A stretch of 60,561 bases of DNA, the filler included, from Catajapyx aquilonaris (taxonomy: Eukaryota), in the NCBI GenBank assembly GCA_000934665.2. It is 2 parts of 2 records of this genome, joined end to end, with 100 filler letters (N's around TTAATTAATTAA, not from the genome) between each part and the next. Parts side by side here need not be neighbours in the genome. Positions count along the whole stretch, not along the records: positions 1 to 30,242 come from JYFJ02004670.1; 1 more part is not named here. The stretch is one strand, 5' to 3'. A model generated the notes under the pieces. That model was given only the letters and a program-made list of their open reading frames with translations. It had not been told where the DNA came from and ran no database searches. Numbering within the stretch: the stretch's first letter is position 1; the number at the start of each line of letters is the position of its first letter. The position numbers and the translations under genes are program-made. Shown in pieces: positions 3,701 through 6,700 of this stretch.

Positions 3701-6700
3701 CATTGTTTTCTGGCTAACAATGACAAAGTGATTGTCACCCTTTATTGGCAAGCTCTTCACAAATTTCTCTACTTCGCTTATGCTTACATCCTGTGACGAA
3801 CACTCTATTACAACCACAACGTTGCTTTCACTATGAGAAATAAGTGACGTGACAAGATCCTGATGGAGGAGAAAATCCTCCGAGCTTAAAAATATAGGGC
3901 TTTTGTTCTCCTTACGAAGGCTTTGCAATAGCTTCATGGAAGTGAGAGGGATGGGCCCTACAAGATTAACTATTGGCTGTTGATCAATGGGAATAGAATT
4001 CAGCCATTTGCTTAAATCGTCACAGACAGTGACTAAAAATTCAATGCCACATTCTTCTACCCTATGCTGATACTCAAGAGCTTTTGCATACAAAGCAATC
4101 GAGGTAATTTTTTTCCTGGCTTCTTCAAAACACTTTTTGCCTTCTTGCCACGTCATGAAAGTACCTTTCGGATCCTTGAACCAGTTCAACATCTTTCTTT
4201 GAACGTAGTCTGCAAAAAATTCACTCTTAATCAAATTAAACTCATTACATTCAACTTGGATAATGTTGCTTAATTTCTCTTCATTTGGTTGATTGACTGC
4301 AAAAGTTAGCTTCTCTAAAAAAATGGCAATGTCGGCATTTATCTTTTCCATGCTCTCATTTGGCATGCAAGAGTGAGGGAAACTGCTCCTATGAAAGCGG
4401 CACTTTCCAAGTTCTTCAATACTAAACCCATCTGTTAATTTCTTTCGCAACTTGTTCAAATCATCAGACAAATTATCATTCAATAAGAAATGTGTACTGA
4501 ATTTTAGATTGCCATCAACAGTTGTCTGTATTCCATCCATCAATAGTTTTATGTTTTGGGTTGTTATTGTTTCTGTAATCTCTATTTCAACCAGTTTATC
4601 CGTACCAGATGTATCCCTTTTATTGATTGCTTCTAATATTAACTTTGCCAAGTCACCAACAGATTGATGAGTTGTTGTCTCTTCTCCAAATTTATTCCAC
4701 ATTTTTAGTTCCTTCTTTCTTATGGCATTCCAAAAGACATTTTCATCAATAAAAATTTCTTCACAGCATTTAAACACCTGTGCAACTGCAAAGACTTTAG
4801 AATGCAGGTCATTCAACTTCAGTTGAAACTCCTTAAGTTCTGATTCCAACTGCACTCTAAAGGCTTGTAGATTTCCTGGTAATGCACTGGTGCCATCCAA
4901 AAACCCGGGGCGGAATTTGACCTCCCCATCCATCTTCACTATGACATGTCCAGACAGTTTGCCAAAACATCTTTTAATGAGAGGATTCTGATTACCTACT
5001 TTCACTCTGTCTGCTTCTTTTAAACGGTTTGCAAGTAGTTCAGCAAATGGTTTCAAGTAATCACCATCTATCATGGGATTTTCATCCGGTTTAAAGTCCC
5101 TCCTTCGTTCCACAAATGCCACTTGCAAAAATACTTCTCTAAAATTTTTAACATCAGTGGACATGTTTTCTCCTGTGCAAAAATCTTCCCCCAATGTCCT
5201 TCTCGTTAGGTCAATAACTCCCTTCCCTAATGCAACGTGATATGATCTAAGAGCATTACCTGTTGGATCATTTTTTGTGTAGACCGGATCTATTTTCTTT
5301 CCATCCAACACACACTCTGCCAGTCCCTTTGCCAGCTTGAATATGTCAGTGGAACCCGCTAGTTTGGAAACTAAGAATTGCTTCTTAACAAAAAAATCTG
5401 CGAATTTATACCTCTTACTTTCTAAAACATCACTTTCTAAAACAAGATCTTTCTCACCTAATTTCTCAAACATACCTCTACTTAAGGGAAAAATAGGCTT
5501 CTTTCCCTGCCTCTTTGAACCTTTAGAAAAGTCGAAATCAATATTTGTGCAGATCACAAAGTCCTTCTTTTCACCTTCAAATTCTGGGGAGTGTTGAATT
5601 TTTCTAAAAGAATGAAAATACTTTGCCAGGCAGAACTCTCCATGTGTGTCATATGTTATCAAATCTCGGCCTGAAATTTTTTTTGTATCATCCAACTTGT
5701 GCTTGGCTTGTATGAAGCGATGCACCATTTTCTGATTTTCTCCTTCATATTGAAACACAATGTCATCAAATTTTTCAGCTGCTTCCATTTCTGTTGCCAA
5801 ACGAAAAGAGTACCTATTATTCAGTCCTCGAGTTAAAAACAATACCAGCAACTTTAATTGATACACTATACCATGGAGGGTGGACTTTAGTCCTTTAGCA
5901 GCATATTCATTTCGATTTTTCAAAATACCAACTGTTACATCGTCATCTCTGAGGCATTCTTGCCTTGTCCTTTTTTTAGGATTACCTTGATCGCAGGACT
6001 TAGAGTCACCCCTTTTTCTCTTAATTTGAACTGTTTTGCTAGGCAATACTTCATCGGCAGTGATCTGATCAGTCTTCACAAGTATGGGTTGAAAATGCAT
6101 TTTACCATAATTTATCATGCACACTTGATCATTTGTTCCACAAGTTATACTCTCTCCACGTTTTATACCTTTATCACAAATGATATTGTGTAACCACTGC
6201 TGGTCACTTTGACTACAGGGGTTTTTCTCAATCAGACCTATTGTAACTTCATATTTTTGACACAATATCCTGCCTTCCACATTAGAATCACCCCACCGGT
6301 CATCACGTAAAATGTTCACAGCATACTCATTAGGAGATTCAGTATGAATGATTTCACCCGTTTCCTTCTGGTACTCAGCAATGATTGCCTTGAACATATC
6401 TGGATGATTCTCTGCAAACTCCTTGCAAACTTGTCTTAGTTCCTCAACAGTAACGCTTGTTCCCTTCTGTTGCAGCAACCCCTGCCGAAACGAATCAAAA
6501 AAACAGCTTTCGTCAGTCCTAGACTGTCCATACTCAAAACCATCAGGTAGAGGCGGGCGTTCACTGTCTAGCTGAAAATTGGGATTAGATTCACAGTCCT
6601 TCCCCGTTCCATTGTTGGGTCCAGGATTGATCTCAACGCCTCCCTCGTTGAGCAGCGTCTTGATCAACCCCCTTCCCATGCTGCACTCCAAAATCCACCT

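Follow-up and report, generated by a model that had tools for sequence, protein, structure and literature searches.

The window considered here is the whole 60,561-nt stretch of DNA from Catajapyx aquilonaris that was analysed, and all coordinates refer to it. On its minus strand lies an intact gene for a large protein that joins an OTU deubiquitinase domain, a conserved nuclease-like module and a NACHT NTPase domain. The open reading frame (ORF) of this gene begins with a short leader that ends in the core of a StopGo peptide, also called 2A. The features of the leader and of the gene behind it are these:

6617..6679, minus strand: StopGo/2A-like leader, MGRGLIKTLLNEGGVEINPG/P, from the minus-strand translation; ATG at 6679–6677.

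6617..6640, minus strand: core octapeptide GVEINPGP, StopGo positions p12–p19, which fits (D/G/C/N)(V/I)ExNPGP.

Between Gly20 (6622–6620) and Pro21 (6619–6617), minus strand: predicted skip site.

755..6679, minus strand: intact, intronless ORF of 1974 codons plus a stop at 755–757, from translation.

6071..6556, minus strand: OTU deubiquitinase domain, residues 42–203, matched by phmmer at E 1.7e-33 to PDB 6w9o (wMelOTU).

5354..5905, minus strand: conserved module, residues about 259–442, a probable restriction-endonuclease-fold (Cap4/Avs-type) nuclease.

2615..3103, minus strand: NACHT NTPase domain, Pfam PF05729, E 7.6e-11, 42.6 bits against a cut-off of 26.7.

What kind of protein does this frame specify? 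The assignment of an OTU domain of the wMelOTU type is, as a matter of homology, firm. Its catalytic residues are Cys59, at 6505–6503 within DESCFFDS, and His195 within HFQP; the Pfam match to OTU is weak (E 7.8e-4, under the Pfam cut-off). In the NACHT domain both the Walker A sequence GDPGEGKS (residue 1197) and the Walker B sequence MMLLDGYDE (residue 1284) are intact. A Pfam scan of the protein found no Death domain, LRR, ankyrin repeats or latrotoxin C-terminal domain. The conserved module between OTU and NACHT is present in all relatives, at 23–44% identity to this copy in a 19-sequence alignment with invariant G, Q, E, DD, QxKH and KY columns. It has no Pfam, PDB-sequence or PADLOC match, and its AlphaFold model (mean predicted local distance difference test score, pLDDT, of 73) has no Foldseek match at E<=0.001. 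By VIA-align the model matches the N-terminus of Avs3 with a middling Z of 6.3 (root-mean-square deviation 3.9, 137 residues aligned), and the further top matches are AF1548, Cap4 (Z 5.7), LmuA (Z 5.4), McrC, VRR-NUC and Hjc. All of these point to the same fold, that of restriction endonucleases. We take them to be the nuclease effector domains of bacterial defence proteins, and the modelled fold suggests that the module is probably a restriction-endonuclease-fold nuclease like those of Cap4 and Avs. A preliminary description of this DNA had given the order as motif, OTU, nuclease and NACHT; the OTU and NACHT domains stand, while the nuclease identity is plausible and not proven, the fold scores being middling.

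The motif itself is in frame with the ORF of 755–6679, which is free of stops, and the minus-strand translation around it reads ...ECS-MGRGLIKTLLNEGGVEINPGP-NNGTGK.... The preliminary description had placed it at 6617..6680 and about 40 codons before the OTU catalytic Cys. The motif is indeed present and its Pro codon occupies the bases at the lower end of that interval, but the start is 6679, and 6680 lies one base too far; from the skip-site Pro to Cys59 we count 38 codons, in agreement with the estimate. By shuffling, the DNA pattern for ExNPGP would be expected 0.01 times in the window, and it occurs once. For the expanded core [DGCN][VI]ExNPGP there is one six-frame match against 3.3e-4 expected per window. 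Since the motif lies in frame at the head of an ORF of 1974 codons, a chance match is unlikely. We conclude that, judged as a sequence, the motif is a genuine StopGo/2A.

If the motif belongs to this class, does the Gly at p12, in place of Asp, compromise it? Li et al. 2026 (PMC12846837) have widened the StopGo core to (D/G/C/N)(V/I)ExNPGP. In their clustered RNA-virus ORFs they report 1,207 sites with Gly at p12 against 908 exact D(V/I)ExNPGP sites; they cite an earlier confirmation of functional D12G variants, and they describe a preference for Gly at p12 in motifs 1 and 3, with separation of ~93% to almost 100%. Gly is thus as common as Asp at p12 in the RNA-virus sites, and the concern, raised in the preliminary description, that the D-to-G substitution might weaken skipping is therefore largely unfounded. 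The octapeptide GVEINPGP is itself the annotated core in 7 rows of sheet D of Li et al. 2026 Dataset S1, where it has three upstream contexts: ...ELETLLNRG/GVEINPGP, ...KTLIDLLLFMG/GVEINPGP and ...GKTLRLLLLMG/GVEINPGP. A near-identical site in the viral data sets is ...ETLLNRGGVEINPGP, and when the viral ETLLNRG/GVEINPGP is set against KTLLNEG/GVEINPGP of the window, 13 of the 15 residues are identical. Upstream, p6–p11 here is TLLNEG, Leu-rich and with Gly at p11, like the viral sites labelled Motif-5 or Unclassified. The window site and these viral G(V/I)ExNPGP sites (Li et al. 2026, PMC12846837) thus have in common the octapeptide, a Leu-rich p6–p10 and Gly at p11. They differ in setting, the viral sites sitting within polyproteins of uncultured RNA viruses, whereas the window site belongs to a cellular gene in the nucleus and lies at the beginning of its ORF or close to it.

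Is the leader seen elsewhere among cellular proteins? An exhaustive phmmer search, in which a query of 179 residues (the upstream frame, the leader and 19 residues after it) was compared with 1.84 billion representatives, returned three proteins, each of them aligned to the leader region only. Two are spurious, repeat-rich bacterial proteins. The sole credible match is a predicted 2A protein of Klebsormidium nitens with two SLIATLLLRGGVESNPGP units. This hypothetical protein (P0040) of a charophyte is 327 residues long and is built from two repeats, with SLIATLLLRGGVESNPGP at the end of each; its ORF, either cellular or derived from an element, possibly encodes multiple 2As. Rao et al. 2025 (PMC12338488) include the Klebsormidium LLRGGVESNPGP sites among their class A 2As, as untested predictions. 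The same source has 314 arthropod rows of predicted host class A 2As, those of ticks, copepods and one bee among them, and some of the sites are at residues 1–24. The pipeline of that study started from GDVE-type peptides; GGVE appears in only 2 rows of its table and GVEINPGP, the core of the window site, in none. The word ‘NACHT’ is absent from four of its supplementary files and from its main text.

Where, then, might the motif have come from? Residues 1–420, used as a query, retrieved 31 proteins. These are giant proteins of Wolbachia, ‘Candidatus Mesenet’ and Rickettsiella, together with copies annotated in arthropods (Temnothorax, Onthophagus, Callosobruchus and Pseudolycoriella) and weak matches in Trichoplax; the domains of the bacterial relatives are OTU, NACHT or NB-ARC, ankyrin and latrotoxin-C. 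With the Wolbachia and Rickettsiales OTU/NACHT giants, wMelOTU (PDB 6w9o) among them, the gene shares its body. The ORF is collinear with a Wolbachia NACHT protein of 3032 residues (P0004) over residues 27–440, 764–1736 and 1790–1953, at 29.5% identity. This is the only long collinear alignment, local identity to the 49 relatives examined being mostly 22–56%. The giants differ from the present gene in that they lack NPGP. Many also have ankyrin repeats or a latrotoxin C-terminal domain, and the Pfam scan shows neither in the present protein. A further protein search and a metagenome scan gave distant OTU relatives only, none carrying the leader, and there are no paralogs of the gene within the window.

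NPGP is found in none of the 49 relatives (31 + 4 + 14 cluster members), all of which are distant and none of which is a close ortholog. Because, in addition, no known 2A functions on bacterial ribosomes, the motif is best taken as a feature of the eukaryotic side. Base composition changes at the same place. The GC content at third codon positions (GC3) is 0.63 in the upstream part and 0.71 in the motif, then falls to 0.42 over the following 59 codons and to 0.36 in the body, and total GC is 50–58% over about 6450–7200 against 33–42% in the gene body. Such a shift is what one would expect if a separate, GC-rich 5' segment had become fused to the body. That the motif arose in situ from a bacterial leader is unsupported, since the local alignment was beaten or equalled by 589 of 1000 shuffles; only in its length does the leader resemble the bacterial ones. 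Within the window there is no second copy of the 5' region, and of retrocopy hallmarks we saw neither a poly(A) tract 3' of the stop codon nor flanking direct repeats.

Bordenstein & Bordenstein 2016 (PMC5062602) report NACHT, OTU and latrotoxin-CTD genes in the ‘eukaryotic association module’ of phage WO. They assign the NACHT of phage WO to a wider set from arthropods and crustaceans, without settling which way the transfer went. From the Wolbachia matches of the present gene we infer that the gene is tied to the family of that module, and it is a candidate for gene exchange between host and endosymbiont, in either direction. Two short contigs (L001 and L002) labelled as an Oscillospiraceae metagenome-assembled genome encode proteins 73–83% identical to the Wolbachia protein P0004 and have 33–35% GC; they are probably mis-binned endosymbiont DNA.

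Is the leader translated at all? The next in-frame Met after ATG 6679 is residue 94, beyond Cys59, and none lies between the motif and Cys59, so that an OTU domain taking its Cys from this exon must start at or upstream of ATG 6679. The context of this ATG, tgcagcATGg, is strong, with A at −3 and G at +4. Counted from it, the conserved LPxxF block falls at residue 44, against roughly 42–55 in six Wolbachia-type relatives, and homology to wMelOTU starts at residue 42.

If the leader is translated and active, how might it behave? As is established for StopGo in general (Li et al. 2026, PMC12846837), the peptidyl-transferase centre takes on another shape under the influence of the ...NPG chain in the exit tunnel, the chain is let go and elongation continues from Pro. 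Here the ribosome would reach ...GGVEINPG, and the nascent chain would distort that centre. The Gly–Pro bond would then not be made; the leader would be freed without a stop codon and translation would restart at Pro. The first product would be the leader, of 20 residues if translation begins at ATG 6679 or of 113–129 residues, including a signal-like stretch, if it begins at ATG 6958 or 7006. The second would be the OTU/nuclease-like/NACHT protein beginning PNNGTGKD.... In this way the N-terminus of the large protein would no longer depend on what the leader encodes. That protein would also gain an N-terminal Pro, whose potentially destabilising effect is discussed by Li et al. 2026 (PMC12846837). 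Finally, a fraction of ‘stop without go’ events could limit, like a valve on translation, how much of a potentially self-harmful effector is made. According to a proposal by Roulston et al. 2016 (PMC4981915), throttling of this kind, by ribosomes that do not resume, is stress-responsive through eEF2.

The reading that we prefer is that a StopGo with Gly at p12 and a Leu-rich upstream part was added to the 5' end of the gene on the eukaryotic side, and that it is translated and measurably active; taken as a whole, we consider this proposition about evenly poised. Several points weigh against it, beyond the absence of NPGP from the relatives. The look-alike viral sites are of ‘Motif-5’ or ‘Unclassified’, while the assays described by Li et al. 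2026 (PMC12846837) covered motifs 1, 3, 4 and 6 only, and Ile at p15 is absent from the favoured residues listed there. The upstream context is reported as decisive, mutation of the characteristic upstream residues being described as nearly abolishing activity in almost all cases, and chimeric StopGo sequences are frequently inactive. Predicted arthropod host 2As scored from 0 to 0.64 in human cells, and 3 of 17 class A peptides were inactive. There are, in addition, sequences that resemble splice sites. A candidate donor and an acceptor-like site, both noted by eye and both in phase 0, could excise the motif, and a second acceptor-like site seen by eye, GTGCAG/C, ends at 6681, one base ahead of the ATG. 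The first pair defines the following feature:

6572..6748, minus strand: candidate in-frame 177-nt intron that would remove the motif, with donor CAG/GTAACA at 6749/6748 and acceptor TTTTCAG/C at 6572/6571, found by eye and unscored.

Might the motif, then, lie in an intron or in the 5' untranslated region (UTR), the protein coming from an upstream exon or ATG joined at 6572/6571, for instance as MAMKQ/LDSERPPLPDGF...? The good donor and the acceptor-like site flank precisely the GC-rich stretch for which the bacterial proteins have no equivalent. The bacterial OTU homology from residue 42 onwards fits such a junction, as does the drop in GC3 from the motif through the next codons to the body. 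The splice sites, on the other hand, were found by eye, and the putative intron contains no stop, is rich in GC and has a weak pyrimidine tract, in a 5.9-kb ORF the remainder of which is intronless. A perfect StopGo core with matching upstream residues would have to occur in an intron by coincidence, at the rate per window given above. We regard this possibility as unlikely, though it deserves to be kept in view.

What if the motif is translated but inert? It could be a relic that skips too little to matter, for example a 5' end taken over from a retroelement or from a sequence of viral origin, which gave the gene its promoter and start codon. The GC3 of the motif and upstream part (0.63–0.71), so different from that of the body, suggests a separate origin, and retroelements with N-terminal 2As have been reported in the literature. 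Many predicted host 2As are weak or inactive, and the upstream motif class of the present site falls outside those assayed. Against this reading, the core is intact at each of its eight positions, the residues upstream of it agree with those of natural viral sites, and the 5' region has no similarity to any protein and no second copy in the window. An inert relic seems to us improbable, to the same degree as the spliced-out motif.

The preferred reading, a translated and active StopGo, has a sub-case in which translation begins further upstream, at ATG 6958 or 7006. The leader would then carry a signal or anchor; the skipped form of the large protein would be cytosolic and the read-through form tethered or secretory. 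Two further features are concerned:

6680..7096, minus strand: stop-free upstream extension of 139 codons, GC-rich, either N-terminal leader or 5' UTR.

6785..6838, minus strand: hydrophobic, signal-peptide-like stretch ALLVLTLLATLNCASAVA with RRSQPLR before it, made only with upstream initiation.

With the upstream part included, the whole stop-free frame runs from 7096 to 755 on the minus strand, or 2113 codons. Over 6680–7096 there is no stop in this frame, compared with 5 in each of the other two minus-strand frames. An extension of this kind arose by chance in 39 of 20,000 mononucleotide shuffles and in 419 of 20,000 Markov-1 simulations (p about 0.002–0.02, that is, 0.2% and 2.1%), the Markov-1 value being modest. 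Upstream in-frame ATGs are found at 7006, 6958 (in good context), 6763 and 6757, and out-of-frame ones at 6887 and 6720, so that four of the six between 7006 and 6720 are in frame and a ribosome that scans from a point 5' of 7006 would encounter all six before it reached 6679. The hydrophobic stretch that the preliminary description had reported at 6785–6838 is there, in the same frame as the motif. Kyte–Doolittle averaging over 11-residue windows flags starts at ORF residues 81–94, with a maximum of 2.65, and the arrangement RRSQPLRSAS-ALLVLTLLATL-NCASAVA/QP is that of the n-, h- and c-regions of a signal peptide. The 20-residue leader from ATG 6679 has no 11-residue window above a mean Kyte–Doolittle value of 1.2. 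It is not signal-like, and dual targeting would therefore require an upstream start at 6958 or 7006. The sea-urchin precedent, to which we return, favours such an arrangement.

There are difficulties with an upstream start. In a cleavable signal peptide the hydrophobic core is typically nearer to the start than here, where the distance would be about 40 residues from Met-6958 and 56 from Met-7006. The motif itself would occupy residues 94–114 or 110–130, respectively; with a start at 6679 it lies within the first ~26. No homolog of the 139 upstream residues was found by phmmer among the 1.84 billion representatives, and the ESM Atlas gave no usable match. They include 7 Trp codons and resemble translated non-coding GC-rich DNA. 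A cytosolic-type enzyme of 2000 residues is, moreover, unlikely secretory cargo.

CpG content bears on the same question. The ratio of observed to expected CpG (o/e) is 0.37 over 6680–7096; the CpG-poor domain (0.37–0.43) extends to about 7100–7200, and beyond it the ratio is 0.86–0.91. The cohesin SA and eIF3e host genes in the window are likewise CpG-poor. In invertebrates gene-body methylation is usually read to mean that CpG-poor DNA marks a transcribed gene body, and the end of the domain thus suggests a transcription start near 7100–7200, which would favour the long leader. The argument is indirect. We also considered whether the low CpG of the gene body proves a long stay in a methylating host, and this version failed its control, two bacterial-type homolog contigs having equal o/e values of 0.35–0.41. 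Weighing these points together, we think this dual-targeting version rather unlikely. A 13-codon upstream ORF (7099–7138, minus strand, ATG 7138) lies in the frame of the main ORF and ends at the TGA (7099–7097) that bounds the open frame.

Finally, it is very improbable that the motif is a match by chance in an insert that was acquired horizontally and has no function or no expression, for although ~80 matches to the expanded core would be expected by chance over 250,000 windows in six frames, the ORF has 1974 stop-free codons with its catalytic motifs intact, and the motif stands in frame just after a strong ATG and in an LLxxG context which, if also demanded, lowers the expectation over the whole scan to 0.04.

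How does the gene compare with the known cellular case? The preliminary description had invoked the N-terminal 2As of sea-urchin NLRs, with their dual targeting, and this precedent is real (Roulston et al. 2016, PMC4981915). In the account given there of Strongylocentrotus purpuratus NLR leaders, 12 of 14 2A-bearing leaders are predicted signal sequences, and the tested 26-residue NLR 2A recodes at about 80% in vitro. The sea-urchin NLRs and the present gene are alike in that a StopGo lies at or near the N-terminus of an invertebrate NACHT/STAND protein, with a leader freed and a Pro start, both of which are predicted for the gene described here. They differ in several respects. The sea-urchin leader, of 26 residues, is strongly hydrophobic (SP2A ...CILYLLLILLMRSGDVETNPGP) and is a signal sequence, whereas the 20-residue leader has no hydrophobic window and therefore cannot serve that signal role. 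At p12 the core has Asp in the sea-urchin NLR 2As and Gly here. The architecture here is OTU/nuclease-like/NACHT with, by Pfam, no Death or LRR, unlike that of the sea-urchin NLRs. The host, which seems to be an arthropod, is not a sea urchin. Most likely the acquisition was independent of, and convergent with, that of the sea-urchin NLR 2As. In our literature searches the sea-urchin NLRs (Roulston 2016, PMC4981915) were the only described case of a 2A on a NACHT gene. As far as its sequence can tell, the present site is a credible cellular N-terminal StopGo on a STAND/NACHT gene, in parallel to them.

The surroundings of the gene are ordinary eukaryotic nuclear DNA, with eIF3e, cohesin SA, GATA, C2H2 and F-box genes, and the intronless OTU–nuclease-like–NACHT gene sits amid these host genes. 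In 1-kb bins over 1–60561 the CpG o/e of the window is bimodal, which is consistent with gene-body methylation: it is about 0.25–0.5 in the NACHT gene, the C2H2 genes (23–29.5 kb), cohesin SA (32–46 kb) and eIF3e/F-box (49–58 kb), and about 0.9–1.2 at 8–20 kb and 30–32 kb. About 1.8 kb upstream of the gene, at 8516–8870, is an AT-rich tandem array of six copies with a 51-nt period and about 13–25% GC. On the minus strand, 17 consecutive A at 7349–7365 precede ATG 6679 by about 670 nt and may mark the 3' end of an inserted retroposed element of the same orientation. At 1–324, also on the minus strand, an open frame continues past the first position of the window; judged by eye, it looks like the C-terminal portion of a non-LTR reverse transcriptase, and Pfam gives no match at E<=0.01. 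Two minus-strand ORFs of 242 residues, at 23299–24027 and 28644–29372, have matching C2H2 zinc-finger layouts and are apparent tandem paralogs.

What would an active StopGo at this position mean? StopGo is common in RNA viruses and rare in cellular genes, and Rao et al. 2025 (PMC12338488) call the reason for the clustering of eukaryotic 2As at the start of coding regions unclear; the gene described here would offer a tractable case of that question. If the motif is active, it could split off a secretory-type leader, or it could gate the synthesis of a dangerous effector via ‘stop without go’. It would also be a translation signal of eukaryotes only, grafted on a gene that has its closest kin in bacteria with an obligate intracellular life, and this bears on how shared or transferred genes come to be expressed in animal cells. 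If a protostome, too, has a NACHT gene that starts with a StopGo and is unrelated to those of sea urchins, this would suggest that recoding and NLR-like immune receptors are linked in general. It is possible, though on balance doubtful, that an arthropod lineage independently put a virus-type StopGo, perhaps from an RNA virus or retroelement, before an OTU–nuclease–NACHT gene whose family it has in common with Wolbachia-type endosymbionts and that, if active, such signals would be a recurrent and convergent device on the NLR-like receptors of invertebrates.

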